This document shows, one piece after another, positions 4,222 to 51,987 of a stretch of 64,000 nt of DNA. Both the position numbers and the translations under genes were made by a program. The notes under the pieces are model-generated. The model was not told where the DNA came from. It searched no databases and worked only from the letters and a program-made list of their open reading frames with translations. The first letter of the stretch is position 1; every line of letters begins with the position of its first letter. The stretch is from positions 3,056 to 67,055 of the forward strand of contig JANPLD010000068.1 of NCBI GenBank assembly GCA_031426355.1. Direction: 5' to 3'. Origin of the DNA: Alphaproteobacteria bacterium. Lineage in GTDB: Bacteria; Pseudomonadota; Alphaproteobacteria; Rickettsiales; UBA8987.

Positions 4222-4252
4222 TTAACCAATAATTAATAAAATATGATATAAT
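4222..4252 (+). promoter_or_regulatory. CtrA-type box plus extended -10 upstream of virB3
   Basis: TTAA-CCAATAA-TTAA at 4222-4236, then TG-A-TATAAT (hexamer 4247-4252). Confidence 0.6.
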
Positions 4253-4303
4253 ATTATAGTATGAAATATAGTTGATATTCAATAAATTACTAAAAAAAAT
4301 TGT

Positions 4304-4612
4304 ATGGCAAAAAGTGATGCAGGAAAGGTTCAGCGGGATCCATTGTTCTTGGCTCTGACCAGACCGCCTATGATATTTGGTGTAACATACTCATGGTTTG
4401 CGGTAAATTTCTTAACGTGGGTAATGGTTTTCGTTAATATAAAGGATTTTGGTATCTGTATACCGGGGGCTTTCGCGTTGCATGGCGTTGGTTATTATTT
4501 ATGCGCCTATGAACCGCGCTGGATGGAGATAGCAAAGATATGGGGGCTGACAGTTCCAACCTGCCTGAATAGATTTTATCACGGAAACACTTGTTCTTAC
4601 GACCTATATTAA
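4304..4612 (+). CDS. virB3: Type IV secretion protein VirB3
   Basis: DPLFLALTRPPMIFGV signature, two TM segments, directly upstream of virB4. Confidence 0.95.
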   Translation: MAKSDAGKVQRDPLFLALTRPPMIFGVTYSWFAVNFLTWVMVFVNIKDFGICIPGAFALHGVGYYLCAYEPRWMEIAKIWGLTVPTCLNRFYHGNTCSYDLY

Positions 4613-4634
4613 GTTTAAGATTAAAGTTTGAATT

Positions 4635-7037
4635 ATGCTCAAATTTACAAAAAGAAAGGCACTTAAGGCGACAGTTTGCAAAACTGAGGCCAGCCAGACA
4701 AAATTTATACCGTATAAAGGCCATTGGGATGAGAATATAATAATCACCAAAGCCAATGAGATGCTGATAGTGGTGAAGGTTGAAGGATTCTCATTTGAAA
4801 CTGCAGATGATGAAGACCTTGATATTAAAAAGACCATTCTTAACACATTGTTCAAATCTATCTCGGGTGGAAATTACGCTGTGTATTTTCATATAGTAAG
4901 GAAGCGTGATTACAGTGAGCTTGAAGGGAATTTTGAAAATGAGTTCTGCAATGAACTCAATGAAAAATGGAAAGAGAAACACAAAAAGAAAGTAAGTTTC
5001 AAGAATGATATCTACGTTACGATAATCCATAAGGAAGATACTGAGGGAACGGTTTCCGCATCAGTTGGGTTCATCAATAAAATAAACAGGGTTGCGGATA
5101 AAGAGCAGGGAAATAATGACCTTAAGGAAGCTGCGAAAAGCTTGCGTGAGATAGCCAGCAGGCTGGTTGGTTCCTTAAAAAGTTATAAGGCCAGATTGCT
5201 AGGGATCAGGAAAGAAGACAGGGGATATTTCTCTGAAGTGTTTGAATTCCTAGGGTTGATACTTAACGCGGCAACGCCGAGCAATATGCTTGTGCCGACT
5301 GTTAATGCAGACAGGTATCTTTCAAAACAGAGGGTTTATTTTGGTAAAAGGGCGATTGAGATACGCGATGAAAAAGGGAAAAGTAAATTTGGCGGCGCGG
5401 TATCAATAAAAGAATATCCGCCATATACGCATGTTGGAATGTTTGATTCCCTGTTGCATCTGCCATATGAAATGGTTATTACCCACGCGTTTTATTTCAG
5501 TAACCGCTCGGCGGCGATAACTTCAATGCAGCTTCACCAGAACCGCATGAGAAGCGCGGGTGATAAATCTATTTCTCAAACTGAGCATCTTACTGTTGCG
5601 ATGGATATGGCGCAATCAGGTGAGATAGCTTTCGGGCGCCATCATATGACGGTGTTTGTTTATACGCATAGCCTTGAAGACCTTGATATGCAGGTATCTG
5701 AAGTTTATTCTGAACTTGTGAATGTGAATGTAACGCCGGTAAGGGAAACCTTTACATTGCAAGGATCTTTCTGGGCGCAGTTGCCTTGTAATTATTCTTA
5801 CATAGCAAGGCCTTCGATAATTAATACGTTCAATTTAGTTGGAATGTGCCCGCTGCATAATTATCCTTACGGAAAACCAAGGGATAACCACTGGGGGCCA
5901 GCTGTTACGCAGCTTGATACGACATCAGGAACGCCTTTTTATTTCAATTTCCATGTTAGAGATGTAGGGCATACAATGATAGTCGGCCCGACAGGTGCAG
6001 GTAAAACAGTGCTACTTGGGTTTTTATGTGCGCAGTCGCAAAAGTTCAATCCGGACATGTTTATCTTTGATAAGGATAGAGGCGCGGAAATATTTATTAG
6101 AGCAATTGGTGGAAGTTATACGGTTTTGGACCCTTCAGGTAAAATGGGTTTCAATCCGCTTCAGTTAGAAGGCACACCTGAAAATAAAGAGTTTTTAAGT
6201 GACTGGCTGAGCGCGATCTGTTCTGAATCAGGAAAATATGATATCAGCCCGGAAGAAAGGGAAAGGATAGTTGAGGCAATAAACGGGAATTATAAACTTC
6301 CTAAAAAACAAAGGGTATTGAGGAATATAGTTCCGTTTCTTGGGCTTGAAAAACCGGGTTCGATCGCAAGTAGGGTGAGGATATGGCATAGCGGTGAAGC
6401 AAGGGCTGGCGTATTTGATAATGATGAGGATTCGCTTTCATTCAGCGACAGGAAAACACATGGCTTTGAAATGGGGCCTGTTCTTGAATCACAGGAAACG
6501 CTTGGGCCAGTGCTTATGTATATATTCCACAGAATAAACATGACACTCACAGGCTCACCAACAATGATCGTACTTGATGAAGCATGGGCACTGCTTGATA
6601 ATAAAATATTTGCGCCAAGGATCAAGAATTGGCTGAAGGTTCTCAGGAAGCTGAATGGAATGGTAATTTTTGCAACGCAGTCGCCTGAAGATATTTTTAA
6701 ATCTTCAATAAGTGAAACACTGGTTCAGCAGACATCTACGCAAATATTTTTAGCTAATATGAAGGGTACTACGATCTATCAGGATGTGTTCAAGTTATCA
6801 AATCGCGAGTTCGCGATAATAAAATATACTGATCCGGGATCACGTTATTTCTTGGTTAAACAGGGTGAAGATTCCGTTGTGGCAAGGATAGATTTGAACG
6901 GAATGGGAGAGATAATTGAAGTTCTTTCAGCGCGCGCCCATACTGTAAGGTTACTTGACAGGATAAGGGATGAAGTAGGTGATGACCCTGATAAATGGCT
7001 GCCAATTTTTAGAAAGAGGGTTCTAGAAGAAAAATGA
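4635..7037 (+). CDS. virB4: Type IV secretion ATPase VirB4
   Basis: 800 aa; FWAQLP, NHWG, Walker A GPTGAGKT, FDKDRG, Walker B LDEAW, FATQS. Confidence 0.97.
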   Translation: MLKFTKRKALKATVCKTEASQTKFIPYKGHWDENIIITKANEMLIVVKVEGFSFETADDEDLDIKKTILNTLFKSISGGNYAVYFHIVRKRDYSELEGNFENEFCNELNEKWKEKHKKKVSFKNDIYVTIIHKEDTEGTVSASVGFINKINRVADKEQGNNDLKEAAKSLREIASRLVGSLKSYKARLLGIRKEDRGYFSEVFEFLGLILNAATPSNMLVPTVNADRYLSKQRVYFGKRAIEIRDEKGKSKFGGAVSIKEYPPYTHVGMFDSLLHLPYEMVITHAFYFSNRSAAITSMQLHQNRMRSAGDKSISQTEHLTVAMDMAQSGEIAFGRHHMTVFVYTHSLEDLDMQVSEVYSELVNVNVTPVRETFTLQGSFWAQLPCNYSYIARPSIINTFNLVGMCPLHNYPYGKPRDNHWGPAVTQLDTTSGTPFYFNFHVRDVGHTMIVGPTGAGKTVLLGFLCAQSQKFNPDMFIFDKDRGAEIFIRAIGGSYTVLDPSGKMGFNPLQLEGTPENKEFLSDWLSAICSESGKYDISPEERERIVEAINGNYKLPKKQRVLRNIVPFLGLEKPGSIASRVRIWHSGEARAGVFDNDEDSLSFSDRKTHGFEMGPVLESQETLGPVLMYIFHRINMTLTGSPTMIVLDEAWALLDNKIFAPRIKNWLKVLRKLNGMVIFATQSPEDIFKSSISETLVQQTSTQIFLANMKGTTIYQDVFKLSNREFAIIKYTDPGSRYFLVKQGEDSVVARIDLNGMGEIIEVLSARAHTVRLLDRIRDEVGDDPDKWLPIFRKRVLEEK

Positions 7038-8935
7038 GAACTAAGTTCAAATATTTTTTTATTTTAATAATATTCCTACTTTCGTTTTCAGCAGTAGAAA
7101 ACTCTTACGGGCAAAATAATCTAATTGATAAACTTACTGAAGATCAAAAAGTAAAAGGTGTGTGCTTTGCCTTTCCGGGATTTGTGAATAAGATCGTGCA
7201 GTGCATAGTTTATTTAACTTCATATACTCTGGTTGAACAAACACTTGATTCCATGCATAGCGCATTTGTGAGCGCTTCAAATTCACTGGTTATAATTTAT
7301 ATAATGTTATTTGGTATGAAGGTTTCCCTGCACCAGATAAAGAACCTCAAAAAGGAAGCCGTTATTGTTTTGCTGACAGCCTTTTGTATCTTATATTTCA
7401 ACAATACTACCAGCATTACAAAATTCATGAACTTTTTTATAAAAGGGCAGGCTGAATTTGTTAATGCGGTAACATCATCAATAACCACAAAACGAATAGG
7501 GACATCACAGAATGTGAACAGCGCATTTTTATGTGATGGGCATAATGGCAAGCCATACACTATCTGGCAGAGGATAGATTGTGTGATAGGGTATGTACTG
7601 GGTGTGCATCCGCTGGTTCAGTACACTGAAGGGTTTTATGACTGCAGTAAAAATTTCAAAACAACTGATATGGCGCCTAATCCTCTGAAGCCCAATAACG
7701 TTGTGGGATGTTATGATTACAGTGTATTCGCAACTAGCACTGAACCTTGGGCAGACCCGGCAAAAGGGCCTTTTAATTTCCAAAATACGGTGGCAACATC
7801 AAATGAGAAATTCGAGGCAAGCGTTGCATTCTCAATGCTCACCATAATAACTTTGATGATGTTCAGCGATGATTTTGGCCTTATTGTGATGATCACAGGC
7901 ATGGCAATAATAATAATGCTTATAATGGCGTTCGGGCAAGCAGTGTTTGTGTATATAACATCCCTTTTCATGATATTAGTACTAGGGCTTTTTGCGCCTA
8001 TAATCATACCGATGTTCCTGTTCGGGCCGACCAAAGATATCTTTACCAAATGGGTGCAGATGTTCTTCTCAGCAATGTTAACACCTGGAATAATGTTCGC
8101 ATATTTAAGTTTTGTTATATTCGCCCTACAATATGTGCTTGATTTTAAGATCACGATAAATGGCAAGCCCATGAGTATAATTGAATATCATTTTGGCGAT
8201 AAGTATAAGGATGCCTTCAAAGATTATAAAAATGTATTTAACTTAACTTCACAAATAAAAGATACAGATCTGAACAATTCTACTGAGTTCACGAAAACTG
8301 TCCGTGGGGTTATTGAAAGGAAAGCAGAAGTTGCTGACGTTAATAAAAATGTGAATGAAAGCGCTGTAAGGAATACTGGGCTTGATAGGAAAAATTCTTC
8401 AAGCATGATGATGGAGCAGCTTTTAGGCGGCGGGATATGGAGCGCCTTTGCCAATAAAGCCAGCAGAAGCGCTGGTAAAGATGAACAGATGTTGCAACTT
8501 CCACATTTAAGTTTTGCAGATACTGTGCAGTTCGCGAGAGATAGATATTCCTTACTTGGAATGGCAAAAATTGTAGAAAAATTAAAATTGGCAAATAAGC
8601 TTAAACCTGAAGAAGCGGCAAAAATTATTGCAGCAGCTACAAATGCGAACGATATTGATGAATGGATGCGCATTTACCAGTCCAGCCCTGCCCTTCTTGA
8701 TGACCTTAGGGAAGCTATATTGGATCAGGAGCGACAGGATTATAATGATAAACTTGCTTACATGCAGTTGCTGATGATAGTTTTCCTTACGTTGTCTGTA
8801 ACATTCTCTTTCATGAACAATGTGCAGATATTTGCAGCAAACCTTTCTAATGCAGGCGTTCACCCTGCGGGTAAAATGATAGACCTTTATAACACCAGTA
8901 TAAGAAGGATGACCGCGGGGATTAACAGGAAATGA
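7034..8935 (+). CDS. virB6: VirB6/TrbL-like T4SS inner-membrane protein, copy 1
   Basis: Follows virB4 with an ATGA overlap. Signal-like N-terminus and a polytopic core (LFAPIIIPMFLFGPTKDIFTKW) typical of VirB6. Confidence 0.85.
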   Translation: MRTKFKYFFILIIFLLSFSAVENSYGQNNLIDKLTEDQKVKGVCFAFPGFVNKIVQCIVYLTSYTLVEQTLDSMHSAFVSASNSLVIIYIMLFGMKVSLHQIKNLKKEAVIVLLTAFCILYFNNTTSITKFMNFFIKGQAEFVNAVTSSITTKRIGTSQNVNSAFLCDGHNGKPYTIWQRIDCVIGYVLGVHPLVQYTEGFYDCSKNFKTTDMAPNPLKPNNVVGCYDYSVFATSTEPWADPAKGPFNFQNTVATSNEKFEASVAFSMLTIITLMMFSDDFGLIVMITGMAIIIMLIMAFGQAVFVYITSLFMILVLGLFAPIIIPMFLFGPTKDIFTKWVQMFFSAMLTPGIMFAYLSFVIFALQYVLDFKITINGKPMSIIEYHFGDKYKDAFKDYKNVFNLTSQIKDTDLNNSTEFTKTVRGVIERKAEVADVNKNVNESAVRNTGLDRKNSSSMMMEQLLGGGIWSAFANKASRSAGKDEQMLQLPHLSFADTVQFARDRYSLLGMAKIVEKLKLANKLKPEEAAKIIAAATNANDIDEWMRIYQSSPALLDDLREAILDQERQDYNDKLAYMQLLMIVFLTLSVTFSFMNNVQIFAANLSNAGVHPAGKMIDLYNTSIRRMTAGINRK

Positions 8936-10446
8936 AGAAAATAATTCTACATATATTTATAGTATTTTCTCTGCTTTTTGGCGGAACGCAGGCTTATTCC
9001 CAAACTGATCCCCATGCCATAAATTTTATTGATACTTGTAAAGGGAATGATTCAGTATTCAAACCATTCAGTGTTTCAGGAAATATAATAAGATGTATTG
9101 AGCGGGTTATCAATACGGCTTCTGATACTCTGATAGATAATTATATTGCAGGGTTTGCGACCTTTGTTTTTTATATGACTATGATGGCAATTCTGTTCTT
9201 TTCCATCAAGGTAATGTTCGGGGTGGCAAGCACAAGGGGTATAACTTTTGTTTTCATGATGAAGATAGTGTTCGTGCTGGCTTTCACCTCTCCCGGAATA
9301 GCAGATACCTTGAAAGGGTTCAGGGATACTTTTATTGAGGCACCTAAATATTTCTCGGTAGAGATTTTAAAAGCCATAGATTTTGATTCTTCCTTAAATG
9401 TTTCTGAAGATGAACAGAAAGTTGCTACGGATATTTTTGATATGTTCGATATCTATATATTAAAATTATTTGGCGTGGAAAAACCACCTGTAATAGGGGG
9501 AACGCCCGCGCAAGAACCAGAAAATTTTCAACAAGAAATATTCATAGGGTTGGCAGGATTGGTAGCAGGGTTATTCTTTACGGGGCCTGTAGGGTTCTCA
9601 GTTGCAACGATAGCTCTCGGGTTTGTATTCGCAATAATATTTGCCGTGGCTCAAGCAATTCTATTTTATGCGACAATTGTGATCGCCTTGAACTTCTTAA
9701 TTGCGGTTTCACCGCTAGTTGCAACAGCTATATTATTTGAGCCCTTTAAACGAATTACCGGAACGTGGTTCCTATCCTTCATAGGGTATGCCGTGCAGCC
9801 ACTTATATTTGTGGCCTTCATGGGAATAATGCTCAAATGCCTTGATACTGTAGTTGTACTGTTCAAGCCTACATACCAGAAAGTTCAGATGAAACTTGAG
9901 AATGTGAATGGTGATACGAAAACTGAAACAACTTTATTTAACTGTGGAACTTTCAAAGCTTCAGGCAAACCGGAAAGCAAAAATTCCGCGAGTAATATAG
10001 CAAGTGATTATATATTAAATGCCCTTACCGGAGGCGGTTTCAGCAGCTACCAGAAAGGCGCAAGGAAATTTGCAGCCGCTGCGGATACAAAAAATGATCC
10101 TTCAGTTGCGACCACAGAATGTAGTTTTAAAGCTCCGGTAATACTTATAGATTCTGATGACCCAAAAACTGATCCTAAGGCTGCGCAAAAACTTGTGCGC
10201 CTTACTCAGGATAACTTAATAGAGCTTAAGGCTGCAAAATTTACCGTAATTCTTTTAATGATGCTGCTTATGGGCTTTATGAAAGAATTGCCGAAGATTA
10301 TCAACGGTATAACATCACAGGCTGTTATAGCGCCGATAAGCCAAGGCATTGGCGAAGGTGGCGGTTTAGTTGAAGCACCACTGCGCGCGCTTCAACAGGT
10401 TGGTTCAGGTGCAACACAAGCAGTAAGAGGCATGATAGGAAAATGA
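8932..10446 (+). CDS. virB6: VirB6/TrbL-like protein, copy 2
   Basis: Core motif VSPLVATAILFEPFKRITGTW...YAVQP; ATGA overlap with copy 1. Confidence 0.85.
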   Translation: MKKIILHIFIVFSLLFGGTQAYSQTDPHAINFIDTCKGNDSVFKPFSVSGNIIRCIERVINTASDTLIDNYIAGFATFVFYMTMMAILFFSIKVMFGVASTRGITFVFMMKIVFVLAFTSPGIADTLKGFRDTFIEAPKYFSVEILKAIDFDSSLNVSEDEQKVATDIFDMFDIYILKLFGVEKPPVIGGTPAQEPENFQQEIFIGLAGLVAGLFFTGPVGFSVATIALGFVFAIIFAVAQAILFYATIVIALNFLIAVSPLVATAILFEPFKRITGTWFLSFIGYAVQPLIFVAFMGIMLKCLDTVVVLFKPTYQKVQMKLENVNGDTKTETTLFNCGTFKASGKPESKNSASNIASDYILNALTGGGFSSYQKGARKFAAAADTKNDPSVATTECSFKAPVILIDSDDPKTDPKAAQKLVRLTQDNLIELKAAKFTVILLMMLLMGFMKELPKIINGITSQAVIAPISQGIGEGGGLVEAPLRALQQVGSGATQAVRGMIGK

Positions 10447-11825
10447 AAAAATTATTAACTACATTACTTATTTTAATATTATTCCCGCTACTGCTCACCA
10501 GTTGCGCTTCGGAGGAAGAGGAAGGCGTATCGCAAAATGCCACTGATGTCTGCACGCCGGTAAACCAGGTGCTTAAGCCTTCAGATTCAGATTATAAGCC
10601 GCTTACCATACCAGATGGCGGGCAGAAAAAAGGCGTAATCACATGGGTGATAGATAAGGTCACAAGTATATTGGTTACTGCATCACAGGATATATATGAA
10701 GAATTATCACAGGATGAAGAATATAAAGCGATAATCGGCATATGTATAACGCTTGCGATAATGTTCTATGCGGGCTCTATAATGCTGGGTATGAGGCAGT
10801 TGGCGCCGTACGAAGGCTTTATGTTCGCGCTTAAAATAGTACTTATATATAATTTTGCAGTTAACTGGGATACTTTCCAGTTCTATGTACTTGATACTCT
10901 AGAGGCATTTATACGGGACGGTATAAATATGGCCTCCAATACTTTCAGTGGGTATAATTGTATAAGCGAGGCAGATTGCCAAACCGGGGTAGTGAATATC
11001 ACCGTGGTTGGGGAAATTGATAAGATGCTTTCATTCCTGTGGGATTTTGGAATGATGAAACTTGTAATGGCATTAATGCTGACAGGTATCACCGGGTTCT
11101 TCTGGGGATTGGGATTATTTGGCTTTACCATTCTTTACCTGCTTGCTGTTCTTCAAACGATAAAAATTTTCCTGCTGGCACTTATCGGCAGATATGTACT
11201 TTATGCACTTGGGCCAATATTCCTGTCATTCCTGTTATTCAACCAGACACGCGCATTATTTGATGGGTGGATGAGGCAGCTTATAAGCTTTACCCTGCAA
11301 CCGATATTCCTGTTCATATTTTTAGGGATGTTCAATGCGGTTATTGCAGGTTTTGTAAATACCATGTTCATTGATAATTTAAATAACCAAGCACAATATT
11401 TCAAACAGGAAGCCAATGGCCCACCAAATCCTAACGGGCAGGCAATTACAGTAGATTCAAACTATTGTATAAAGAAGGTTAAATTCAGTGATACACCTCT
11501 TGGGGATGTTTACTGGTGGCAGTTATGCTCATCAACTGGCCCTGAAGCAGACAGGTGCAACCAAAGTCTTATAAAACCAACCATACCGATCGATATATGG
11601 ATAATACTTGGCTGTCTTATCATTTGTTATATGATGTTCACTATGACCACATGGATAGTTGAGGTTGCGAATACTCTGGCAAGTGGCGCGATTAGCCTGA
11701 CGGGTATTCATATGCAGGGTATGCCGCAGCTTAAAAAGGCCGGGGGTGACTTAGTAAGAAGCGGTATGAGTTCGTTAAAAACTCAGGCGACAGCTTCCAG
11801 ACCGCCAACGGGAACGGGAAAATAA
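10443..11825 (+). CDS. virB6: VirB6/TrbL-like protein, copy 3 (lipobox LTSC)
   Basis: Core motif LGPIFLSFLLFNQTRALFDGW...FTLQP; ATGA overlap. Confidence 0.88.
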   Translation: MKKLLTTLLILILFPLLLTSCASEEEEGVSQNATDVCTPVNQVLKPSDSDYKPLTIPDGGQKKGVITWVIDKVTSILVTASQDIYEELSQDEEYKAIIGICITLAIMFYAGSIMLGMRQLAPYEGFMFALKIVLIYNFAVNWDTFQFYVLDTLEAFIRDGINMASNTFSGYNCISEADCQTGVVNITVVGEIDKMLSFLWDFGMMKLVMALMLTGITGFFWGLGLFGFTILYLLAVLQTIKIFLLALIGRYVLYALGPIFLSFLLFNQTRALFDGWMRQLISFTLQPIFLFIFLGMFNAVIAGFVNTMFIDNLNNQAQYFKQEANGPPNPNGQAITVDSNYCIKKVKFSDTPLGDVYWWQLCSSTGPEADRCNQSLIKPTIPIDIWIILGCLIICYMMFTMTTWIVEVANTLASGAISLTGIHMQGMPQLKKAGGDLVRSGMSSLKTQATASRPPTGTGK

Positions 11826-11833
11826 TTTAGATT

Positions 11834-13459
11834 ATGGAAAGAGAAATAATGGAATTTGATGTTGTGATAGTGGGCGCCGGGCCAAGTGGGCTTGCGGCTT
11901 CTATTAAACTTGCACAGTTATCACAGGAAAATAATTCTAACCTGACTATATGCGTTGTTGAGAAAGGTTCAGAAGTCGGGGCGCATATTTTATCTGGAAA
12001 TGTATTTGAACCACGCGCGCTAAATGAACTAATTCCTGACTGGAAGGAAAAAGGGGCACCACTAAATACTCCTGTTACAAATGATAATTTTGTTTTGCTG
12101 ACCAAGAAAAAACATTTTAAATTACCTACCCCGCCGCAAATGCATAATGAAGGTAATTATATTATTTCCCTTGGTAATTTATGCAGATGGCTTGCTGAAC
12201 AGGCACAGAATCTGGGAGTGCAAATATTTCCGGGATTTTCGGCGAGTGAAGTTTTGTTTAATAACACAGGCGAAAAAGTTACGGGAATTGTTACCGGGGA
12301 TTTTGGTGTTTCGAAAAATGGTGAAAGGAAAGAATCTTATCAGCCCGGCATTGAACTGCGCGCAAAATATACGATATTCGCTGAAGGTTGCAGGGGGCAT
12401 TTAACTAAGAGGCTAGAGAAAAAATTCAGTCTCCGAAATAATAGTGATCCGCAAACTTACGGTATCGGTATTAAGGAGCTGTGGAGAATTAAAGAAGAAA
12501 AACACCAGAAAGGTAAGGCAATACACACTATAGGCTGGCCGCTTGATACAAAGACTTATGGCGGCAGTTTTATCTATCATCAGGAAGATAATGTACTTGC
12601 CATAGGATATGTGATCGGGCTTGATTACCAGAATACTTATTTGAACCCATTTAAGGAGTTTCAGCGATTTAAAACTCACCCTTTTGTTCGTGATCTACTT
12701 GAAGGTGGGGAAAGGATATCATACGGAGCGCGCGCAATAAATGAAGGTGGTTACCAATCAATTCCAAAACTGACTTTTCCGGGTGGTTGTTTGATTGGTG
12801 ATACAGCTGGCTTTCTCAATGTTCCAAAAATAAAGGGATCACATACTGCGATGAAATCAGGAATGCTTGCCGCAGAAAGTGTATTCGATGCAATAAAAAA
12901 TAGTTCTGATAAATTAGATTACGAAGAAAAACTAAAGGCGTCATGGATATATGATGAGCTTTATAAAGTACGTAATATCCGGCCATCATTCAAATGGGGT
13001 TTGATTCCGGGACTTATATATTCAGCCATTGATACATATATATTCAGGGGAAAAGCGTCTTGGACATTTAGACATCACGTTGATAACAAGCAGACAAAAG
13101 AAAAACATGAATGCAAACCTATAGAGTATCCAAAACCGGATAATGTCGTTAGTTTTGACCTGCTTTCATCTGTGTTCATATCAGGCACAAGCCATGAAGA
13201 AGACCAGCCCGTTCACTTAAAGCTGACTGATCCAAGTAAGGCAGTTGAATATAACCTTAAATATTTTGATGCACCTGAGCAGAGATACTGCCCGGCGGGA
13301 GTTTACGAGATCATTAAAGATGAGAATAATAATGATAAACTACAGATCAATGCGCAAAACTGTGTTCATTGTAAAACCTGCGATATCAAAGATATAACGC
13401 AGAATATCAACTGGGTAACGCCTGAAGGCGGCGGCGGGCCTAATTATCCGAATATGTAA
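11834..13459 (+). CDS. Electron transfer flavoprotein-ubiquinone oxidoreductase
   Basis: GAGPSG FAD motif, GAHILSG, C-terminal 4Fe-4S motif CPAGVYE...CVHCKTCD. Confidence 0.97.
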   Translation: MEREIMEFDVVIVGAGPSGLAASIKLAQLSQENNSNLTICVVEKGSEVGAHILSGNVFEPRALNELIPDWKEKGAPLNTPVTNDNFVLLTKKKHFKLPTPPQMHNEGNYIISLGNLCRWLAEQAQNLGVQIFPGFSASEVLFNNTGEKVTGIVTGDFGVSKNGERKESYQPGIELRAKYTIFAEGCRGHLTKRLEKKFSLRNNSDPQTYGIGIKELWRIKEEKHQKGKAIHTIGWPLDTKTYGGSFIYHQEDNVLAIGYVIGLDYQNTYLNPFKEFQRFKTHPFVRDLLEGGERISYGARAINEGGYQSIPKLTFPGGCLIGDTAGFLNVPKIKGSHTAMKSGMLAAESVFDAIKNSSDKLDYEEKLKASWIYDELYKVRNIRPSFKWGLIPGLIYSAIDTYIFRGKASWTFRHHVDNKQTKEKHECKPIEYPKPDNVVSFDLLSSVFISGTSHEEDQPVHLKLTDPSKAVEYNLKYFDAPEQRYCPAGVYEIIKDENNNDKLQINAQNCVHCKTCDIKDITQNINWVTPEGGGGPNYPNM

Positions 13460-14894: not shown

Positions 14895-14896
14895 TT

Positions 14897-14928
14897 TTAA
14901 CTATTTATTAATAATTGATCATTATAAT
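14897..14928 (+). promoter_or_regulatory. CtrA-type box plus -10 upstream of orphan ORF 14948
   Basis: TTAA-CTATTTA-TTAA at 14897-14911; TATAAT at 14923-14928. Confidence 0.55.
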
Positions 14929-14947
14929 ACAATAAAACAGAGAATAT

Positions 14948-15454
14948 ATGGATAAAGTTGAAGAAATAGTAAAACAATTTTTGAAGGTAACAAAAACCTA
15001 TTTAGAAGAAAAAAATCCAACTTTTGCTGAATTTAAAAAGGAAATGCCTAAATTAATAGATTCATATACGCAAAAAATCCTAGATCTTGGGCCCCGAGAA
15101 GATGATTATTATGCCAAACTCGCAAAATGCTTTTTTACGGATGTATTTGTAACTACTTCCCAAAACGCAGAATCATTTTTTGATGAAATTATGACATCTA
15201 ATGGAATAAAACCTAATGAGAAAATTTCAGACTATATAATGAAACCAAGTTATTTTGATCTTCTTTCAAGTTTTTTAAATGAAAATTTAGAAATTTTAAA
15301 AAGTGAAGATACCATAAATAATGCTAAAGAAACTTATCAAGAATATTGCATTGGTTCTCTCTGTGATCTAAATTCACAAAAAATAAACTGCAAGATGCCT
15401 TCTCCAATACCTATAGATTTACAGAATAAAGCTTCCTTATCAAAGGGTGGTTAA
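14948..15454 (+). CDS. Orphan soluble protein, candidate T4SS substrate
   Basis: 168-aa AT-rich ORF filling the gap between hisH and aroA on the opposite strand; no recognisable family. Confidence 0.7.
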   Translation: MDKVEEIVKQFLKVTKTYLEEKNPTFAEFKKEMPKLIDSYTQKILDLGPREDDYYAKLAKCFFTDVFVTTSQNAESFFDEIMTSNGIKPNEKISDYIMKPSYFDLLSSFLNENLEILKSEDTINNAKETYQEYCIGSLCDLNSQKINCKMPSPIPIDLQNKASLSKGG

Positions 15455-19593: not shown

Positions 19594-19840
19594 TGATGTT
19601 CCGAAAAGAGAGAGAATGATATTTAATCTAAATTCATAATCAAGAAAAATTAATCTAAAATTAAAAAAAGAAATTTTTAATTGCTATTTCCAATTTTTCT
19701 TTGACCCGAATTAATATTTCTGTTGTCTATGAGATACAGCTTTAAAAATAATACATTGATAAATATTTATACTGCTCCGCTTTTATACAAAGCTTCAAAC
19801 TAGTAACATATACTTCAGGTAGTAAATTTTAATATAGAAT

Positions 19841-20592: not shown

Positions 20593-20937
20593 ATGAAGAA
20601 ACTTAATTTAGTTCTTTTTGCTTTTTTATTTACACTGTCTTCCTGTAAACAGGATATTGATCTGCCGGAAGGTATGGAGCTGGTTGGTAATGCAGACAAG
20701 ATACATTTTGTGTATGCGCCTGAGACTTATAAAGGTGAGGAAATAAACCTTAGGGAAGCTGGGAGGGTAATATGTACGGTAAGGTTCCAGCAGCAGGATT
20801 ATTGCCAGATATATTTCTGGTATAATATTAAGGATGTTGCAACCTCTCTGCCGGTTATAAACAGGGCAAGCCTGTTTGCGATATATGAGCTGAGGGATGG
20901 TATTATGAATTTGAAACAAACTAAGGAAAGCAAATAA
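20593..20937 (+). CDS. Hypothetical lipoprotein
   Basis: MKK, hydrophobic stretch, lipobox LSSC; tightly packed between etfB and etfA. Confidence 0.75.
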   Translation: MKKLNLVLFAFLFTLSSCKQDIDLPEGMELVGNADKIHFVYAPETYKGEEINLREAGRVICTVRFQQQDYCQIYFWYNIKDVATSLPVINRASLFAIYELRDGIMNLKQTKESK

Positions 20938-20938
20938 A

Positions 20939-21871
20939 ATGCCTAAAATACTTATAGTAGCAGAACATGATGGTAAGGCGCTGAACCCGAATACAAGATC
21001 AGTAGTAACAGCGGCTAACAAAATTGGAGGAGCGATTGATATACTTGTTGTTGGAAATGGTGATCTGAGCAGCATTTCAGCAAGCGCCGCAAAAATAACT
21101 TCGGCTGAAAAAATACTGGTATGCTCAAATAATTCTTTTGAGCATTTTTTAGCGGAGGCTGTCTCTTCAGCTATTAAAAATATTGCTGAGAATTATGATT
21201 ATATTCTTGCACCAGCAACTACGTTCGGTAAAGATTTTATGCCAAGGCTTGCCGCAACATTAGACATTCAGCAGATATCAGAGATCACCGAAGTGGTGGA
21301 CGAGAAAACTTTTAAAAGACCAATTTACGCGGGAAATATTATTTCTACGGTGAAGACAAACCAGGCAAAAAATATAATCACTATCAGATGTTCCACTTTT
21401 GAAAAGGCGGGTGAAACAGGAAATGCTGCAATTGAAAATATAAATCTTGCAGTGGAAAATAGTCTGACATCTTTCGTTTCAATGAATAAAACTGAAAGCA
21501 CAAGACCAGAATTAACTTCAGCAAGAGTTGTTATATCAGGCGGAAGGGGCGTTGGAAGCGCTGAGAATTTCAAGATAATCGAGGGGCTTGCTGATAAGTT
21601 GAAGGCAGCAGTTGGCGCTTCAAGGGCGGCGGTTGATGCGGGATATGTATCTAATGATTATCAGGTTGGGCAGACAGGGAAAATAGTTGCGCCGGAATTA
21701 TATATTGCGGTTGGCATATCAGGCGCGATACAGCATTTAGCAGGAATGAAAGATAGTAAAGTTATTGTTGCGATAAATAAAGATGAGAACGCACCAATAT
21801 TTGAAATTGCGGATATAGGATTAGTTGGAGATCTGTTCCAGATACTTCCTGAGCTGACACAGAAATTATAG
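20939..21871 (+). CDS. etfA: Electron transfer flavoprotein alpha subunit
   Basis: RPIYAGN, GASRAAVDAG, QVGQTGK, GISGAIQH. Confidence 0.97.
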   Translation: MPKILIVAEHDGKALNPNTRSVVTAANKIGGAIDILVVGNGDLSSISASAAKITSAEKILVCSNNSFEHFLAEAVSSAIKNIAENYDYILAPATTFGKDFMPRLAATLDIQQISEITEVVDEKTFKRPIYAGNIISTVKTNQAKNIITIRCSTFEKAGETGNAAIENINLAVENSLTSFVSMNKTESTRPELTSARVVISGGRGVGSAENFKIIEGLADKLKAAVGASRAAVDAGYVSNDYQVGQTGKIVAPELYIAVGISGAIQHLAGMKDSKVIVAINKDENAPIFEIADIGLVGDLFQILPELTQKL

Positions 21872-21934
21872 TTTGAAGTTGGAAGTTAGTAGTTGGAAGT
21901 AATTCTTCAACTTAAAACTTCAAACTTCAAACTA
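21869..21934. repeat. Heptamer 4+4 inverted repeat hairpin (unit AGTTGGA/TCAAACT)
   Basis: agtttga-agttgga-agttagt-agttgga, then ttcaact-taaaact-tcaaact-tcaaact. Confidence 0.85.
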
Positions 21935-21952
21935 AAAGTATAATATACTTTT

Positions 21953-23362: not shown

Positions 23363-23394
23363 TTAACCTTTTGTTAATCTTTATGTAGTAATAT
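23363..23394 (+). promoter_or_regulatory. CtrA-type box plus -10 upstream of HExxH orphan
   Basis: TTAA-CCTTTTG-TTAA at 23363-23377; TAATAT at 23389-23394. Confidence 0.55.
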
Positions 23395-23429
23395 TAAATT
23401 GCTAGAAAATTATCTTGCATTTATTAGTT

Positions 23430-24308
23430 ATGCCCTTTGGTTGGAAAAAATTGATTGATTTGAGCGAAGTTAAATTTGATGAAGAAAGGGCTTCCGCAAT
23501 TTCGGCACTGGAAACTATTTCTCAGACGGAATATGGCACAAAATTCTTAGAAAATCTAATGACTTTATATAATGGTGATGAATCTAATAAGATTAAATTT
23601 ATCTTCGAGAAAAATATAATTTTACCTACTGGTGAGTTTTCAGGTACGTATTATAGCTCAATTGAGAATAATAAGATTTCTACTTCCTATTTAAATATAA
23701 ATATCCAAGAGGAAAAATCTTATTATTACTATACTGAAGATGGCGCTTTATTAGAACCTTTGCTTGATCTTACTATCGTTCATGAACTGCAGCATGCCTA
23801 TTTTGATCTACTAAGATGTCATTTTAACAATCATACACCTGAAATTGTTAATAACCCTGTTTTTCAAGATGATTATAAGAAAATTATATTAATTGAAAAA
23901 AATCTTGGAAGAGGCGGAGAAGAATTAGAAGCTATATCTCGTGCCAATAATTATTTTTCTGAGTTAGGATTACCTACTAGACGTTCGCACAATGTTGTTG
24001 ATTGGAAGCGTGAAGATTTAAATTATTTTTGTGAAGGGGATAATCCCCAATCCTATGTTTACAGAATGCCGGATAATGAATTAGAAAATCTTAAAACCTC
24101 AATAAAGCCAAATTTACAAGGCAGAAATAACTTTGATAATCTCATTATTTCTCAAATAAAATGGCCTTTAGAACCAGCTGAAAATTATCGGCTTTTATCA
24201 CAAAGATTAATGTTAAAGATTTTAGATAAAGCTGAGGAAATGAATAGTTCTGAACCCACAGAAACCCCTTCTAATTTACCAAACTTTTCGCCTAAACGTT
24301 CTTTCTAA
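23430..24308 (+). CDS. Orphan zinc metalloprotease, M91/NleD-like; candidate effector
   Basis: VHELQHA motif, then E..A...N...ELGLPTR; N-terminal ALETISQTEYGTKFL. ATG at 23430 preferred over TTG at 23415. Confidence 0.65.
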   Translation: MPFGWKKLIDLSEVKFDEERASAISALETISQTEYGTKFLENLMTLYNGDESNKIKFIFEKNIILPTGEFSGTYYSSIENNKISTSYLNINIQEEKSYYYYTEDGALLEPLLDLTIVHELQHAYFDLLRCHFNNHTPEIVNNPVFQDDYKKIILIEKNLGRGGEELEAISRANNYFSELGLPTRRSHNVVDWKREDLNYFCEGDNPQSYVYRMPDNELENLKTSIKPNLQGRNNFDNLIISQIKWPLEPAENYRLLSQRLMLKILDKAEEMNSSEPTETPSNLPNFSPKRSF

Positions 24309-30809: not shown

Positions 30810-30849
30810 TTAAAGTTTTGTTAGATTTTTTAACCCTTTGTAATATATT
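30810..30849 (+). promoter_or_regulatory. Degenerate CtrA-type box upstream of orphan 30877
   Basis: TTAA-AGTTTTG-TTAG at 30810-30824, TTAACC half-site at 30830, TATATT at 30844. Confidence 0.35.
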
Positions 30850-41716: not shown

Positions 41717-41783
41717 AATTTGATATTTTAGATTCTTTCTAAATAAAAATATAATATAATCAATACGTTATTTGAACTTAAAC

Positions 41784-41815
41784 TTAACCATTTATTAACC
41801 TTTTTATAGTAAAAT
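41784..41815 (+). promoter_or_regulatory. Full CtrA-type box plus -10 upstream of HExxH orphan
   Basis: TTAA-CCATTTA-TTAAC at 41784-41799; TAAAAT at 41810-41815. Confidence 0.62.
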
Positions 41816-41839
41816 ATTCAAATAGCAATAAGGGTGCTT

Positions 41840-43078
41840 ATGGAATTTTATGATATAGAAATCAAGGCAACAGATGGTCAAACTTATCTTGTACGTATAG
41901 ACAGGAAATCTGATTTATTTACTAAGGCGCCAATCACCAAAGCAGAAAGAGAAAAATATTTGGAAGAAAAGTTGGCTTTTGCCATCAACACATTTAGTGA
42001 CGTAAGTAAGAAAAACAAAAATCTTGCTTCAAACGTAATTTTTATTTTACCGAAAAATAATCCTGATGTGTCTTATGCCGCTATTAATTCTGGATTACCT
42101 GATTCGCCTGAATATAAGGAGCCTTCATTATATTTAAACGAAGTATCATTAAAAGAAAAAAATTATTATGCTTTATATTCCGTATTTGAACATGAATTAT
42201 CCCATGCAAGAAATAAGGATTTATCAGCAGGAGTTTCTTTGAAATTTCTTTCTGATAAAATTGAGCGGTTTGATAATTTTTTTTCTGCCATGGAAAATGG
42301 CGAATTAATATCAATCAAAGATTCAGTTATTAAAGAAGAATTTTCTGATTTTATTACCAAGGCTAAAAAATTTAAAGATTTTTGCGATAGAAACCAACTT
42401 AATCTCAAAGACAGAATGGGATTAAATGAATCATTAAAAAATCAGGGTTTATATGAAGAATATATAAATAATATAAATACACTTGGGCAATTATATATTG
42501 CTAATCTGGTAATGAAACTTCCCGGAGAAAATTCACAAAAAGAGCAGTTTAGTGAAGCTGAATTAATTAAGCAATATAAAGAATTGCAAGGGTTTTTATC
42601 TGATATAAAAGAAATTAAAAAAATCCAGGAATTAAAAGCAGATATTTCGGCATCTTATCCAAATGCTGCTTCAACACTTCTGGAAAAGCTTGATCTTATT
42701 AACCGTGAACATGAATTGAAAGCTATTGAAGAATTTGCAAAACTTATTGAAGGGCTTGCTCTTAAAGGCATTAAATATAGGCCTATTAAGGAATCTCATC
42801 CTAATTTTTCTGAAAGATATGCAGAGCTTGACTGTATAAGAGAACAAAGAACTAAAGAATTGTATAAGAAGTCCATATCGGCGGAATTTGGCAATAAATT
42901 GCCGTCTATTAGCGAAAAAGAGTTAGAGGGAATAATTTCAGCAGGTGGTATAATAAAAGATCATGGTGGAATAGTTGATTTTACTAATACTAAAGAAATT
43001 CAAACTTTAACCATTGGTAGCGACATATATAACGTAGCTTATGAAAATACTGAAGTAGGTAAAAATCTAAAAAGCTAG
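41840..43078 (+). CDS. Orphan soluble zinc metalloprotease, M48-like; candidate effector
   Basis: FEHELSHA, then REHELKA and SHPNFSER motifs; no TM or signal peptide. ATG 41840 (alternative GTG 41834). Confidence 0.65.
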   Translation: MEFYDIEIKATDGQTYLVRIDRKSDLFTKAPITKAEREKYLEEKLAFAINTFSDVSKKNKNLASNVIFILPKNNPDVSYAAINSGLPDSPEYKEPSLYLNEVSLKEKNYYALYSVFEHELSHARNKDLSAGVSLKFLSDKIERFDNFFSAMENGELISIKDSVIKEEFSDFITKAKKFKDFCDRNQLNLKDRMGLNESLKNQGLYEEYINNINTLGQLYIANLVMKLPGENSQKEQFSEAELIKQYKELQGFLSDIKEIKKIQELKADISASYPNAASTLLEKLDLINREHELKAIEEFAKLIEGLALKGIKYRPIKESHPNFSERYAELDCIREQRTKELYKKSISAEFGNKLPSISEKELEGIISAGGIIKDHGGIVDFTNTKEIQTLTIGSDIYNVAYENTEVGKNLKS

Positions 43079-43081
43079 TCT

Positions 43082-44673: not shown

Positions 44674-44725
44674 ACTACTTCTGTTTTACTTAAATTATTT
44701 TAAGAGAAAATTATTTTGAGGGAAA

Positions 44726-44803
44726 TGGGGCGAGTGACGGGGCTCGAACCCGCGACATCAAGTTCCACAAACTTGCGCTCTAACCAGCTGAACTACACCC
44801 GCC
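44726..44803 (-). tRNA. tRNA-His (GTG)
   Basis: Cloverleaf G-GCGGGTG...TTGTGGA...GGTTCGAGCC...CACTCGC-C-CCA, with G-1:C73 and encoded CCA. Confidence 0.97.
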
Positions 44804-44859
44804 ATATTCAAGCGCCTAAAAAGAGTAATTTCTATAGAAAGTCAATAGAAAGGTTAATT

Positions 44860-44933
44860 TAAGTGGTTAAGTGATTAGGTGGTTAAGTGAATTATAAAAA
44901 ACCACTTAGCCACTTAGGTCACTTAAACACTTA
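44860..44933. repeat. Octamer 4+4 inverted repeat hairpin (unit TAAGTGGT/ACCACTTA)
   Basis: taagtggt-taagtgat-taggtggt-taagtga, then accactta-gccactta-ggtcactta-aacactta; immediately 3' of tolB. Confidence 0.85.
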
Positions 44934-44935
44934 CA

Positions 44936-46261
44936 CTATCTACTAAGTAAGGGGCTCCATGCCGGATCAGAAGCTTGGGTTGAGGTTTCGATACGGCGGA
45001 GGTTATAACCGGTTATATCAACACTGTATATTGAGCTTCTTCCAGGAACTGTTGAAGAGCCGGGAGTTTTTCTGGAGAAGAGGATAACACGGCCATTCGG
45101 GCTCCATGTCGGGCCTTCATCAAGGTAACTTTCAGTAAGCATCCTTTCGCCGCTACCATCAGGTTTCATAACGCCGATATAGAATTTACCACCGAGCATT
45201 TTTGTAAATGCTATCAAGTCACCACGTGGGGACCAGACAGGAGTAGCAAACCTTCCGCGGCCATAGCTTATCCTTTTTACATTACTGCCATCAGCATTCA
45301 TTGTATAAACTTGCTGAACACCAGTTCTGTCAGATTCAAAAGTTATCTGCCTCATATCTGGTGAGAATGAAGGGGAAGTATCAATTGATGGATGGCTGGT
45401 AATTTTCTTAACCCTGCGGGAACCAAGATCCATAACGTAGATGTCGGCATTACCGTTTACGGAAACTGAGAAGATAGCCTTCTGCCCGTCAGGTGAGAAC
45501 CTTGGTGCAAAACTCATACCCGGTAACTGGCCTAATATCTCTTCGCGGCCTGTTGAGAGGTTATAAATGTTAACGCTTGGTGTTCTGGTTCTATAAGAAA
45601 GATAGATAAGCCTCTGCATTGAAGGGTCAAAACGAGGGGTTAAAACTAGGCTTCTGCCAGAAGTTAAGAACATCTGGTTGGCGCCATCCTGATCCATTAT
45701 CGCAAGCCTTTTAATAGGCCTTCTCCAGTCACCAGCTTCACCAATATACACTATGCGGGAATCAAAATAGCCTTTTTCACCGGTTAAATATTCATATATC
45801 TCATCTGATATGAGGTGAGATATCCTGCGCCAGCCACCTGTTGTTGCGCGGTAAGATTTAGCAAGGGTCTGCCTGCCTGTTAGAACATCCCATAACCTGA
45901 ACTGAACTTTTATCCTGTCGCCGCCTTCGCTTTCAATTGAGCCAACTACAAGAGCCTGCGCCCTGATATTTTTCCAGCTTGAAAATTGTGGGATAGAGTT
46001 AATTCCAAGGTTTTTCTGTAGATATGAAGTTTTATTTATTACATTAAAAAGGCCTGACCTGTTAAGGTTATTGGCGAGTACGCCTACCATTTTAGAACCT
46101 ACATCTGACGTAACGCTGTCAGTGCCGGTAAAATCAGGTGTCGCTATACGGATAGGATCATAACTACCCTGGTTTATATCAATTTTAAGAACTGCGTGCG
46201 CTTCATTAACGGCAAAAAATGAAATAAAAAGAAGAAGCGTCAATAATTTAGTGAATCTCAT
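44936..46261 (-). CDS. tolB: Tol-Pal periplasmic protein TolB
   Basis: Signal peptide, [19 protein letters not shown], repeated P.(W/F)SPDG propeller blades, DPAWSP. Confidence 0.96.
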
Positions 46262-46387
46262 AAATATATTCCTGAAAATTTTTTTGGGATTCTACATATA
46301 AGGTTTAAAAAAACAAGTGACAAGTACCTTGATAAATATATTCAAAGCCTATAAAACCTCATTTAATAATAAGGGATAACGCTTAGC

Positions 46388-49594: not shown

Positions 49595-50661
49595 TGTCTT
49601 TCGAGCAGAAATTAGAATCTATAATAGCAAAACATAAGGAGATGGGTGAAAAGCTCATGAATCCTGAATCCATGCCGTCTAAAGAGTTTGCCAGCCTTTC
49701 AAGGGAATATTCAAACTTAGCTGGTACGGTTGAGGAAATTGAAAAATTCCTAAGTATAAAAAGCTCTATTTCGCAGCTTGAGGAAATGGTTGCTGACCCA
49801 GAGATGAAGGAACTGGCTGAAGCAGAGCTCAAAGAAGCAAAAGATCAAATCCCGGTACTGGAAAAACAGATAAAGATCGCATTACTCCCAAGAGATGCAG
49901 CTGATACAAAGAATGCCATATTGGAGATACGCGCGGGAACGGGCGGTGATGAAGCTGCGATTTTTGTAGGTGATCTATTCAATATGTATCAGCGTTATGC
50001 AACGAAGCTAGGATGGCAGTTTGAGATAATGGAAATATCAGAAAGCGATATGGGCGGCTTTAAGGAAGTTATATGCAGTATTTCAGGAACTAATGTATTC
50101 GCGAAATTAAAATTTGAATCAGGCGTTCACAGGGTTCAGCGTGTTCCAAAAACTGAAACGCAGGGACGTATACATACATCAGCAGCAACGGTTGCAGTAC
50201 TTCCGGAAGCTGAAGATGTTGATATACAGATCGAAGATAAAGATATCCGCGTTGACGTATTCCGCGCGCAGGGTGCCGGCGGCCAGCACGTTAACAAAAC
50301 TGAATCAGCGGTTCGTGTAACTCATATTCCAACGGGCTTAGCCGTTGCGCAGCAAACTGAAAAATCCCAGCATAAAAATAAAGCCCACGCGATGAAACTT
50401 CTTAAATCACGCCTTTATGAAATGCAGAGGCAGAAGCTTGAACAGGAACGCGCATCCGCACGTAAAAGCCAGGTTGGCAGCGGTGACAGAAGTGAGAAGA
50501 TCCGCACTTACAATTACCCGCAAGATAGAATTACTGACCACCGAATTGGCGTAAGCATCTTCAATATTGAGAAAGTTGTTGATGAGGGAAATATCGGTCA
50601 GGTAATTGACGCGCTTATAGTTGATGAGCAGGAAAAATTACTTGCGGAATTGGGAAATTAA
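49594..50661 (+). CDS. prfA: Peptide chain release factor 1
   Basis: PKT specificity tripeptide, GGQ motif, RTYNYPQ. Confidence 0.98.
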
Positions 50662-51911
50662 ACTCTTTGCCACGAAGGGGTTTGTCCTATTCTGATAACC
50701 CGTGCTTTTTCCGATAAAGTTTGAGTTGGTGATGGGGTATCAATTTCATTTTCATTAAAAGAAAATTTTTCTTTAATTGCCTGCCCTTTTTCAATTTCTG
50801 CTACCGGGCTTCTTTTAGGGTTCTTCGTATAATGGCCTATCCTCATCGTGGCTATATAATTTCTGCCATTTTCAAGGAAAAGCTGTAAATGTTTGGCATA
50901 ATCAGCGCCTAGATCAACCACACTAAGCACCCCTTTTAAATAAGCTTTCCCTACCTCATTTAATTTTCCTGTTTCCAGATCAACGCCTTCCCGGGCATTT
51001 ATTCCAACTGCTGCATCTGCTGCGCGATATCCTCTACGGCCCATTTCTTCATTATCAATAATAGTAGAAAAAGATTCATCATTTAAAATATTGTCGTAAT
51101 ATGTATCACAGTGAATGTGGCCTTTAGCCAATTTTGCATGCTGTTTTTTTAATTCTTTATATTTTACCTGTACCTCTCTACATCTATCTATATGCGCAAA
51201 AATAAAATCTTTTGTTAATTCTAAATCATTCTTATCTGACGATATAGGCAGCTCATTTCTTTCTCTTAGGTTTTGTGCAAGAATATTAAGCCTTTCAGAA
51301 AATTCTCCTGTTTCAGGATTATAAATTTTTTTAAGTTTCCTTATCTGATGGGCAGGATCATAAGGATCTTTATTTGCAATTCTTTTTTTTGCTGTTTCAC
51401 TATGGAATATATTATCCAGTACCATCATTCCCGCAGAAAATTCTCTGCCCTGCCTATATGCTATAGCAGGATCAAATTCTTTTGTAGGATCATAAGACAA
51501 AAGTGTGCCTGAGGCTTTTTCACAAATATAAAATGCTTTCTGCAACTCAACTTTTTTACCATCTATAATTTCAGTAACATCAATTATTCCTTTAAGTAAA
51601 ATTTTAGGAAAACGTACTTTTATCTCTTCACCAAACTTATCATATACACTATGAAGCCTCTCCCCTGCTTTCTGAATATGAGTTGTTATGCTCAAACCTT
51701 TTTTAGGAAGGATTCCATGAAATAAATTAGTCTGCGGGGTTTCTATAACAACATAAAAATTCTGCAGTTTTTTATCTTTTTCGGCCTGAATTATATGATA
51801 GTTGATATCGCCAACAGATTTATTGGTGCCATTAGTATTATCTTCAAAGCTAATATTACTATATCCTATTTGTTCTAAATGTTTGGTGATTGCCTGTTTA
51901 TTAGTTGCCAT
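50658..51911 (-). CDS. Orphan APH/homoserine-kinase(type II)-like phosphotransferase; candidate effector
   Basis: [13 protein letters not shown] catalytic loop, IIDNE metal-binding motif, RAADAA. Confidence 0.65.
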
Positions 51912-51955
51912 CTTTTCCCTTCTATTCCTTCAAATTCTTGGTATTACAATCATAC

Positions 51956-51987
51956 AATTTATGGTAAAATGGTTAAGAAATCATTAA
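51956..51987 (-). promoter_or_regulatory. Full CtrA-type box plus -10 upstream of kinase-like orphan
   Basis: Minus strand TTAA-TGATTTC-TTAAC (51987-51972); TAAATT at 51961-51956. Confidence 0.6.

Follow-up and report, generated by a model that had tools for sequence, protein, structure and literature searches.

A candidate CtrA-type promoter class shared by a type IV secretion operon and scattered ORFans of a Rickettsiales-like bacterium

Two motifs have been published for the response regulator CtrA, TTAA-N7-TTAA(C) and the 8-mer TTAACCAT (PMC9791040), and in most CtrA-activated promoters of Caulobacter a single box close to the consensus lies at the -35 (PMC11264516). The CckA/CtrA pair is conserved across Rickettsiales (PMC7397232). 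In Legionella, the winged-helix response regulator PmrA activates about 40 scattered effector genes (PMC6989116). The effectors of the Rickettsiales type IV secretion system (T4SS) are hard to find, being mostly ORFans with no common signal. For Anaplasma, Ehrlichia, Brucella, and Bartonella, an earlier search for a cis-acting motif in front of T4SS effector genes gave 'RS-TY' of S4TE; until then, as the S4TE paper of 2013 noted, alphaproteobacterial type IV effectors had no described cis-acting sequence (PMC3814349). Here we analysed a 64-kb stretch of contig JANPLD010000068.1 (this whole stretch is called the window) and describe in it five exact TTAA-N7-TTAA boxes, each followed 10-11 nt downstream by a -10-like TAnnnT hexamer, which stand before the virB3-virB4-virB6 operon and before four lineage-specific ORFans.

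Five candidate box promoters and their chance expectation

Box 1 (TTAACCAATAATTAA, 4222..4236, plus strand) precedes virB3 and is followed after 10 nt by TATAAT (4247..4252, plus strand), in front of which TGA forms an extended -10 of the TGn type. The next three boxes are also exact, lie on the plus strand, and have their plus-strand hexamers 11 nt downstream: box 2 (TTAACTATTTATTAA, 14897..14911) stands in a 53-nt gap before orph1 with TATAAT at 14923..14928, box 3 (TTAACCTTTTGTTAA, 23363..23377) before orph2 with TAATAT at 23389..23394, and box 4 (TTAACCATTTATTAA, followed by CC, 41784..41798) before orph4 with TAAAAT at 41810..41815. On the minus strand, box 5 (TTAATGATTTCTTAA as read on that strand, followed by CCAT, 51973..51987) precedes orph5, and its hexamer TAAATT (51956..51961, minus strand) again follows after 11 nt. 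An earlier interpretation made from the letters alone (the sequence-only reading) had given the same positions, sequences, and spacings, and all of them proved exact.

Such sites might be a coincidence of AT-rich intergenic DNA, and their link with the orphans might merely reflect AT-rich surroundings. The window is densely coded with a G+C content of 38.9% (61% AT), and its intergenic DNA, 2793 nt or 4.4% of the window in our gene map, has a G+C content of 28% (72% AT); the sequence-only reading had calculated with 75% AT, which was wrong for the window, since only the intergenic DNA is AT-rich. The box-bearing gaps are among the most AT-rich of the intergenic DNA (G+C 0.13-0.27). The number of exact boxes in the whole window, six, equals the chance expectation: 100 whole-window shuffles gave a mean of 5.98 boxes, and 58 of them contained at least six, so that there is no overall enrichment. 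In addition, the number of sites is small (n = 5), the N10/11 plus TAnnnT part was defined post hoc after the sites had been inspected, and the exact box at 19650 stands outside any promoter context. These points speak for coincidence and must be set against a shared promoter element. All six boxes, however, are intergenic, i.e., inside 4.4% of the window. When each gap was dinucleotide-shuffled with its own composition kept (n = 5000), the mean was 1.15 boxes and six were reached in 12 of the 5000 shuffles, and for a box with N10/11 and TAnnnT the five observed sites compare with a shuffle mean of 0.19, none of the 5000 shuffles reaching five. Among the spacings of intergenic TTAA-Nk-TTAA from k = 0 to 25, k = 7 occurred six times and each of the 25 others 0-3 times, with one occurrence for N6 and none for N8. 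Since the N7 spacing alone is enriched, neither simple AT-richness nor A/T tracts in loose phase can explain the boxes. No box occurs in coding DNA, against 2.8 expected (codon permutation, P = 0.055). The chance per gap is 3-12% for a box and 0.3-2.9% for a box plus -10 (0.035 and 0.005, respectively, in the 53-nt gap of box 2). The impression of the sequence-only reading that the repeated hits look non-random is therefore borne out. The virB3 box is, moreover, kept in three related genomes despite diverged flanks, as described below. Coincidence is already disfavoured by these observations, and we consider it highly improbable; with good confidence, the tests suggest that the virB3 operon and the four ORFans have the box in common as a promoter element, non-random and specific in position.

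The sixth exact box (19650..19664, no strand assigned) lies in a 247-nt gap between a TAXI transporter gene and etfB. As had been noticed before, it is the only other exact box and has no matching -10: no TAnnnT occurs at N9-12 in either orientation, and the box points to no gene. The chance of a box in this gap is 0.11, and it is probably the single chance occurrence expected in intergenic DNA. A copy with one mismatch (TTAAAGTTTTGTTAG, 30810..30824, plus strand) stands before orph3. It had been counted as a degenerate copy, but it falls outside the architecture, with no TAnnnT at N9-12 and the nearest TAATAT at N16. The proposal of one architecture for the T4SS operon and five orphans thus holds for virB3 and four ORFans and fails for orph3. 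Another candidate with one mismatch, TTAAATGAGGTTTTA-N11-TATATT (46352..46366, minus strand), is found before tolB and might belong to the promoter class as well.

The two halves of each box are direct repeats with a period of 11 nt. Over the ten half-sites the consensus is TTAA followed by C (6), C (6), A (7), T (8), T (9), and T (7), that is TTAACCATTT. Provided that the hexamer is the -10 element, the box would occupy about -37 to -23. None of the five box promoters has a usable -35 at 16-18 nt from the hexamer (0-3 of 6 matches to TTGACA; the best match at virB3 is 3 of 6). A scan of 35 upstream regions for -35/-10 pairs was uninformative, except that it found the box before no other gene. 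The five promoter regions have nothing in common besides box and hexamer, which indicates that they did not arise by the copying of a single mobile sequence. A third, degenerate half-site was observed exactly 11 nt 5' of the first TTAA at virB3 (TTAT, 4211-4225) and at orph4 (TGAA, 41773-41787), giving three phased half-sites at these two promoters.

The sign of regulation is unreadable from sequence. In Caulobacter, boxes at -35 not only activate but also repress, as seen for fliQ, fliL, and hemE Ps (PMC11264516). The box could accordingly be a repressing operator, bound by CtrA or another protein, through which the T4SS and AT-rich genes of recent acquisition would be silenced during part of the cell cycle or infection cycle. 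On the other hand, the lack of a -35 in all five box promoters is typical of activator-dependent promoters, and an extended -10 (TGA-TATAAT) able to work alone is present only at virB3. We regard repression as improbable, and activation is the reading followed below.

The secretion operon and the conservation of its box

Downstream of box 1, virB3 (4304-4612; NCBIfam NF010474, 86.7 bits, cutoff 74) is followed by virB4 (4635-7037; the Rickettsia-type equivalog NF010473, 1087 bits, cutoff 1050) and by three VirB6-like genes (7034-8935, 8932-10446, and 10443-11825), all on the plus strand. Two of the VirB6-like proteins match Pfam TrbL/VirB6, and the third is paralogous by tblastn. The order of virB3-virB4 and then several virB6 paralogs is that of rvh systems, and the presence of VirB3, VirB4, and VirB6 places the system in type IVA and not in the Dot/Icm type IVB. 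Rvh systems also comprise further scattered islands (virB8-11, virD4, and copies of virB2) and have no virB5; here such islands would be expected outside the window. A gene for electron transfer flavoprotein (ETF)-ubiquinone oxidoreductase (11826-13459) starts 8 nt past the last virB6 paralog and may be cotranscribed with the secretion genes; the order of virB6 and this gene is kept in L002 (18091-19710) and L003 (8478-9404), two of the relatives described next.

A VirB4 query against one genome per species gave nine loci, which were compared over the VirB4 locus with 10-kb flanks. The closest three (L001, L002, and L003) show 88, 75, and 75% identity and come from uncultured Rickettsiales metagenome-assembled genomes (MAGs). 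Two further loci at 50-52% identity are from Rickettsiales or Rickettsia MAGs (the more distant Rickettsiales, L004 and L007), and the rest are from Micavibrio or Rhodospirillales (39-48%). The layout of virB3 and virB4 followed by virB6 paralogs is also present in L001-L003. In all three of these close relatives, the box, the N10 spacing, and a TAnnnT hexamer are kept at the same place upstream of virB3. The promoter reads TTAACCAATAATTAA-N10-TATAAT in the window, TTAACCAATTATTAG-N10-TATAAT with one mismatch in the box in L001, TTAACTAATTATTAA-N10-TATTGT in L002, and TTAACTAATTTTTAA-N10-TATATT in L003. A four-way alignment placed 24 of 32 invariant columns inside 36 nt (window 4217-4252), reaching from just before the box through the -10, while the rest of the virB3 spacer, which is 70-140 nt long, has diverged and differs in length. 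In L001, tblastn gave no dnaQ match upstream of virB3, which indicates that the box travels with virB3. The architecture is absent before virB3 in both of the more distant Rickettsiales loci, a result that counts against the explanation proposed below, and it is absent in the Micavibrio and Rhodospirillales loci. As far as these alignments tell, the conserved virB3 element is a property of the close clade. Other exact boxes in the relatives lie within genes (L001 1975, L002 5383, L003 3105) or have no -10 (L001 19803).

Most genes of the window could be named by NCBIfam and Pfam profiles. They include the genes for the propionyl-CoA carboxylase beta subunit, ligA, and dnaQ; others belong to histidine, aromatic amino acid, and isoprenoid biosynthesis or are nrdA, pyrG, ribosomal protein genes, dnaN, murA, tolB, prfA/prmC, recN, and guaB. 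Judged from the VirB4 relatives and this gene content, the source lineage is an uncultured, metabolically little-reduced, Rickettsiales-like alphaproteobacterium carrying an rvh-like T4SS.

Two other intergenic structures were observed. In the gap after tolB, which also contains tRNA-His (GTG; 44726-44802, minus strand), octamer repeats of the TTAAGTGG type with an 8-nt period face inverted copies between the tolB stop and the tRNA gene (hairpin region 44845-44940). Read on the minus strand, these repeats form a long hairpin with a folding energy of -28.8 kcal/mol (z = -5.85), which none of 200 shuffles matched. This is probably a terminator or a repetitive extragenic palindromic (REP)-like element, and it accounts for several intergenic TTAACC hits. 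An intergenic excess of TTAACC(A) (14 of 43 TTAACC, 8 of 14 TTAACCA) was not relied on, 3 of the 14 coming from this hairpin. The 267-nt gap before nrdA contains a near-palindrome, ACATACTACATATAGTGTCAC (28738-28760), which is about 135-155 nt away from the gene and resembles an NrdR box.

The orphan genes behind the boxes

The four ORFans with a box are orph1 (14948..15454, plus strand; 168 aa, no family above cutoff), orph2 (23415..24308, plus strand; 297 aa, with HELQH at residue 123 and a start that is probably the ATG 15 nt further in), orph4 (41834..43078, plus strand; 414 aa, with HELSH at residue 120), and orph5 (50658..51911, minus strand; 417 aa). For orph2, orph4, and orph5, a search of 5.8 billion proteins returned only the proteins themselves, as did phmmer for orph4 among 1.84 billion representatives. 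The sequence-only reading had described five orphans, orph1-orph5, as AT-rich and as having neither signal nor transmembrane segment, and this is sustained on both counts. They have the five lowest G+C contents at third codon positions (GC3) of the 62 genes tabulated (0.18-0.23, with 0.18 for orph1, against mostly 0.27-0.45), and their maximum 19-residue Kyte-Doolittle hydropathy is 0.38-1.19, against 2.4-2.7 in the VirB6 proteins. By this crude test, none of the five contains a hydrophobic segment, as expected for effectors free of a Sec signal and membrane segments. Four of the five box promoters drive four of the five lowest-GC3 genes (hypergeometric P = 8.8e-4; the reference set, picked after the data had been seen, was the 30 protein genes whose upstream gap measures 45 nt or more).

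Between aroA and hisH, orph1 is encoded on the other strand, and its overlap with the 3' end of aroA is 15 nt (14895-15454). In the syntenic relative L002 it is absent and hisH abuts aroA, which indicates that orph1 was inserted in the lineage of the window. There, aroA, hisH, and hisA follow one another on one strand with a gap of 18 nt (20732-22395), and it looks as if the insertion of orph1 split an apparent aroA-hisH-hisA operon. The DNA upstream of hisH is now only 53 nt long and is shared with the orph1 promoter. The genes prfA and prmC are adjacent in many bacteria. In the window, orph5 lies antisense between them, its stop overlapping that of prfA by 4 nt (50658-52011). The promoter of prmC must consequently lie in the 100-nt gap in which box 5 is found as well.

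Weak similarities were found for three of the products. orph2 matches Peptidase_M91 (PF14891, named 'Effector protein' in Pfam) at E = 0.0045 and 17.8 bits, below the 25-bit cutoff, and its nearest protein-atlas clusters are also Peptidase_M91 (score 0.95, 183 of 256 features shared). For orph4, the protein atlas gave Peptidase_M48-like viral clusters (score 0.93, 160 of 256 features), to be taken as a lead only. orph5 matches NF003558 (homoserine kinase) weakly (E = 3e-7, 29.6 bits against a cutoff of 271) and contains HCDTYYDN, an HxDxxxxN motif spotted by eye. Pfam searches at E up to 1 gave only noise for orph1, orph3, orph4, and orph5, so that the kinase-like reading of orph5 depends on the one NCBIfam match and this motif. 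A sequence search of the PDB with orph2 and orph5 gave nothing meaningful (best E = 0.088). In orph2 and orph4 the HExxH motif follows a similar YLN...EK.YY stretch; a BLASTP comparison of the two was not significant (best E = 1.4), aligning only YLN...EK.YY...HEL.HA, and they may be very distant paralogs.

The four ORFans are plausible effector candidates, considering their ORFan status, atypical composition, absence of signal and membrane segments, and, in two of them, the HExxH motif. Several results reduce the weight of this interpretation. The net charge of the last 25 residues (K+R minus D+E) is +3, -2, +1, -1, and +3 in the five orphans, so that two of five pass the C-terminal criterion of S4TE (25 residues, charge of at least 2). 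orph3 shares the low GC3 and yet has no proper box. AlphaFold2 run without an alignment gave models of orph2 and orph5 that are unusable, with a mean predicted local distance difference test (pLDDT) of 31 and 36, respectively. It is conceivable that the coregulation is real and that the orphans, instead of being effectors, have another stage-specific role or are cargo of a selfish or mobile kind that acquired a host promoter. This would agree with the facts that no translocation signal is demonstrable, that the C-terminal charge of the orphans is not distinctive, that the nearest clusters of orph4 are viral, and that orph1 and orph5 lie antisense inside what are operons in other genomes (in the case of orph5, from the general adjacency of prfA and prmC). 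In contrast, none of the five orphans matches PHROGs or PADLOC, flanking repeats that would hint at a mobile element occur around the orphans at chance level only, orph2 resembles M91 effector proteases, and the promoter class of the ORFans is the same as that of the T4SS operon. We consider non-effector functions somewhat unlikely, and we put secretion of the four ORFans, as suggested by the sequence features, at slightly below an even chance.

The candidate binder and comparison with known systems

The sequence-only reading identified TTAA-N7-TTAA(C) with the published CtrA site that overlaps the -35 of CtrA-activated promoters, and the literature agrees (PMC9791040, PMC11264516). The half-site consensus TTAACCATTT matches the CtrA 8-mer, which is found exactly in two of the ten half-sites. 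In Ehrlichia chaffeensis, chromatin immunoprecipitation sequencing (ChIP-seq) of CtrA gave a peak annotated to the virB3 promoter (peak_104 in Table S2, 3.16-fold) and another inside virB6 (2.03-fold), while the validated CtrA targets ctrA, bolA, surE, and gshB showed 1.6-1.7-fold (PMC9791040). The pal-type ompA of Ehrlichia is also a CtrA target (PMC9657007). The ChIP peak at virB3 is supportive of CtrA, although not decisive.

The box may instead be real and bound by another protein, such as a PhoB-, OmpR-, or PmrA-like response regulator or a regulator of the EcxR/ApxR type. An 11-nt direct repeat would suit any tandem winged-helix dimer, and four of the ten half-sites read TTAAT, the PmrA-type half-site. 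The presence of phoU in the window suggests a Pho two-component system, and the genome, being less reduced than those of classical Rickettsiales (his, aro, and isp genes), may encode more regulators. EcxR/ApxR-type regulators have been reported for the T4SS genes of Anaplasmataceae; in Ehrlichia, EcxR has been published as their regulator, and CtrA acts globally at the late stage (PMC9657007). Furthermore, the virB3 peak is unexceptional, since there are 257 ChIP peaks and 7 of the 28 rows examined are at least 3.16-fold (PMC9791040). Neither ctrA nor cckA lies within the window, so that CtrA is indistinguishable here from other winged-helix response regulators. All of this tells against CtrA as the binder. 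In its favour, both the spaced repeat and the 8-mer are those published for CtrA, the ChIP peak falls at virB3, and the CckA/CtrA pair is retained throughout the order. Taken together, another binder appears unlikely. If the element is real, it is best guessed to be a CtrA site, which is somewhat more likely than not.

On the basis of these results, we propose that the five sites represent one class of activator-dependent promoter, in which the TTAA-N7-TTAA repeat would replace the -35 and the -10-like hexamer would lie 10-11 nt further on. The repeat would be occupied by a dimer of a winged-helix response regulator of the OmpR/PhoB family, for which phosphorylated CtrA is the most likely candidate, and this dimer would bring in RNA polymerase. 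As a result, the virB3-virB4-virB6 operon and at least four lineage-specific ORFans, which stand singly among housekeeping genes and are candidate secreted substrates, would be transcribed together. The shared promoter class is probably real and CtrA-dependent, and the effector regulon is plausible; the whole picture of a CtrA-type activated T4SS operon with an ORFan effector regulon is, in our judgement, a matter of even odds.

If the signature of box, N10/11, and -10 holds, it would allow candidate effectors in uncultured Rickettsiales to be listed cheaply from sequence, would connect secretion with the CtrA developmental switch, and would illustrate the way in which a virulence or symbiosis regulon takes in newly acquired genes. 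A more far-reaching reading, which we offer tentatively and think doubtful, is that in this little-reduced lineage of Rickettsiales CtrA has been rewired from a master regulator of the cell cycle into a master switch of host interaction. CtrA would then turn on the rvh operon, new ORFan effectors would join by gaining a 15-nt box that replaces the -35, and the signature would serve as a genome-wide effector finder for Rickettsiales. The literature searched contained no explicit link between CtrA, rvh, and effectors, the sole trace being one row of a supplementary ChIP-seq table.

With the CtrA-activated promoters of Caulobacter and other Alphaproteobacteria, the sites described here share the repeat, its spacing, the extended half-site, and, if the hexamers are -10 elements, the place overlapping the -35 (PMC11264516, PMC9791040). 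They differ in their targets, which are a type IV secretion operon and ORFans instead of cell-cycle, flagellar, pilus, and methylase genes. The CtrA regulon of E. chaffeensis (ompA, bolA, surE, gshA/B, gst) is similar in that a Rickettsiales CtrA acts as a global stage regulator with a ChIP peak at virB3. It differs in that the main text of that study, as far as searched, does not discuss virB3 and claims no link to effectors (PMC9791040). The RS-TY motif is a 10-nt purine/T-rich sequence unrelated to TTAA-N7-TTAA (PMC3814349).

The PmrA/PmrB regulon of L. pneumophila and C. burnetii belongs to Gammaproteobacteria and serves the type IVB Dot/Icm system under a different regulator. Zusman et al. 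reportedly described in 2007 that PmrA uses a tandem TTAAT-type repeat which substitutes for a -35 and keeps a constant distance to the -10 that follows it. Since the secretion system of the window is of type IVA (rvh-like) and its host an alphaproteobacterium, it is not a member of the PmrA regulon, and the likeness would be one of working. If the rewired-CtrA reading is true, the promoters described here would be for type IVA secretion in an alphaproteobacterium what the PmrA regulon is in Legionella and Coxiella.

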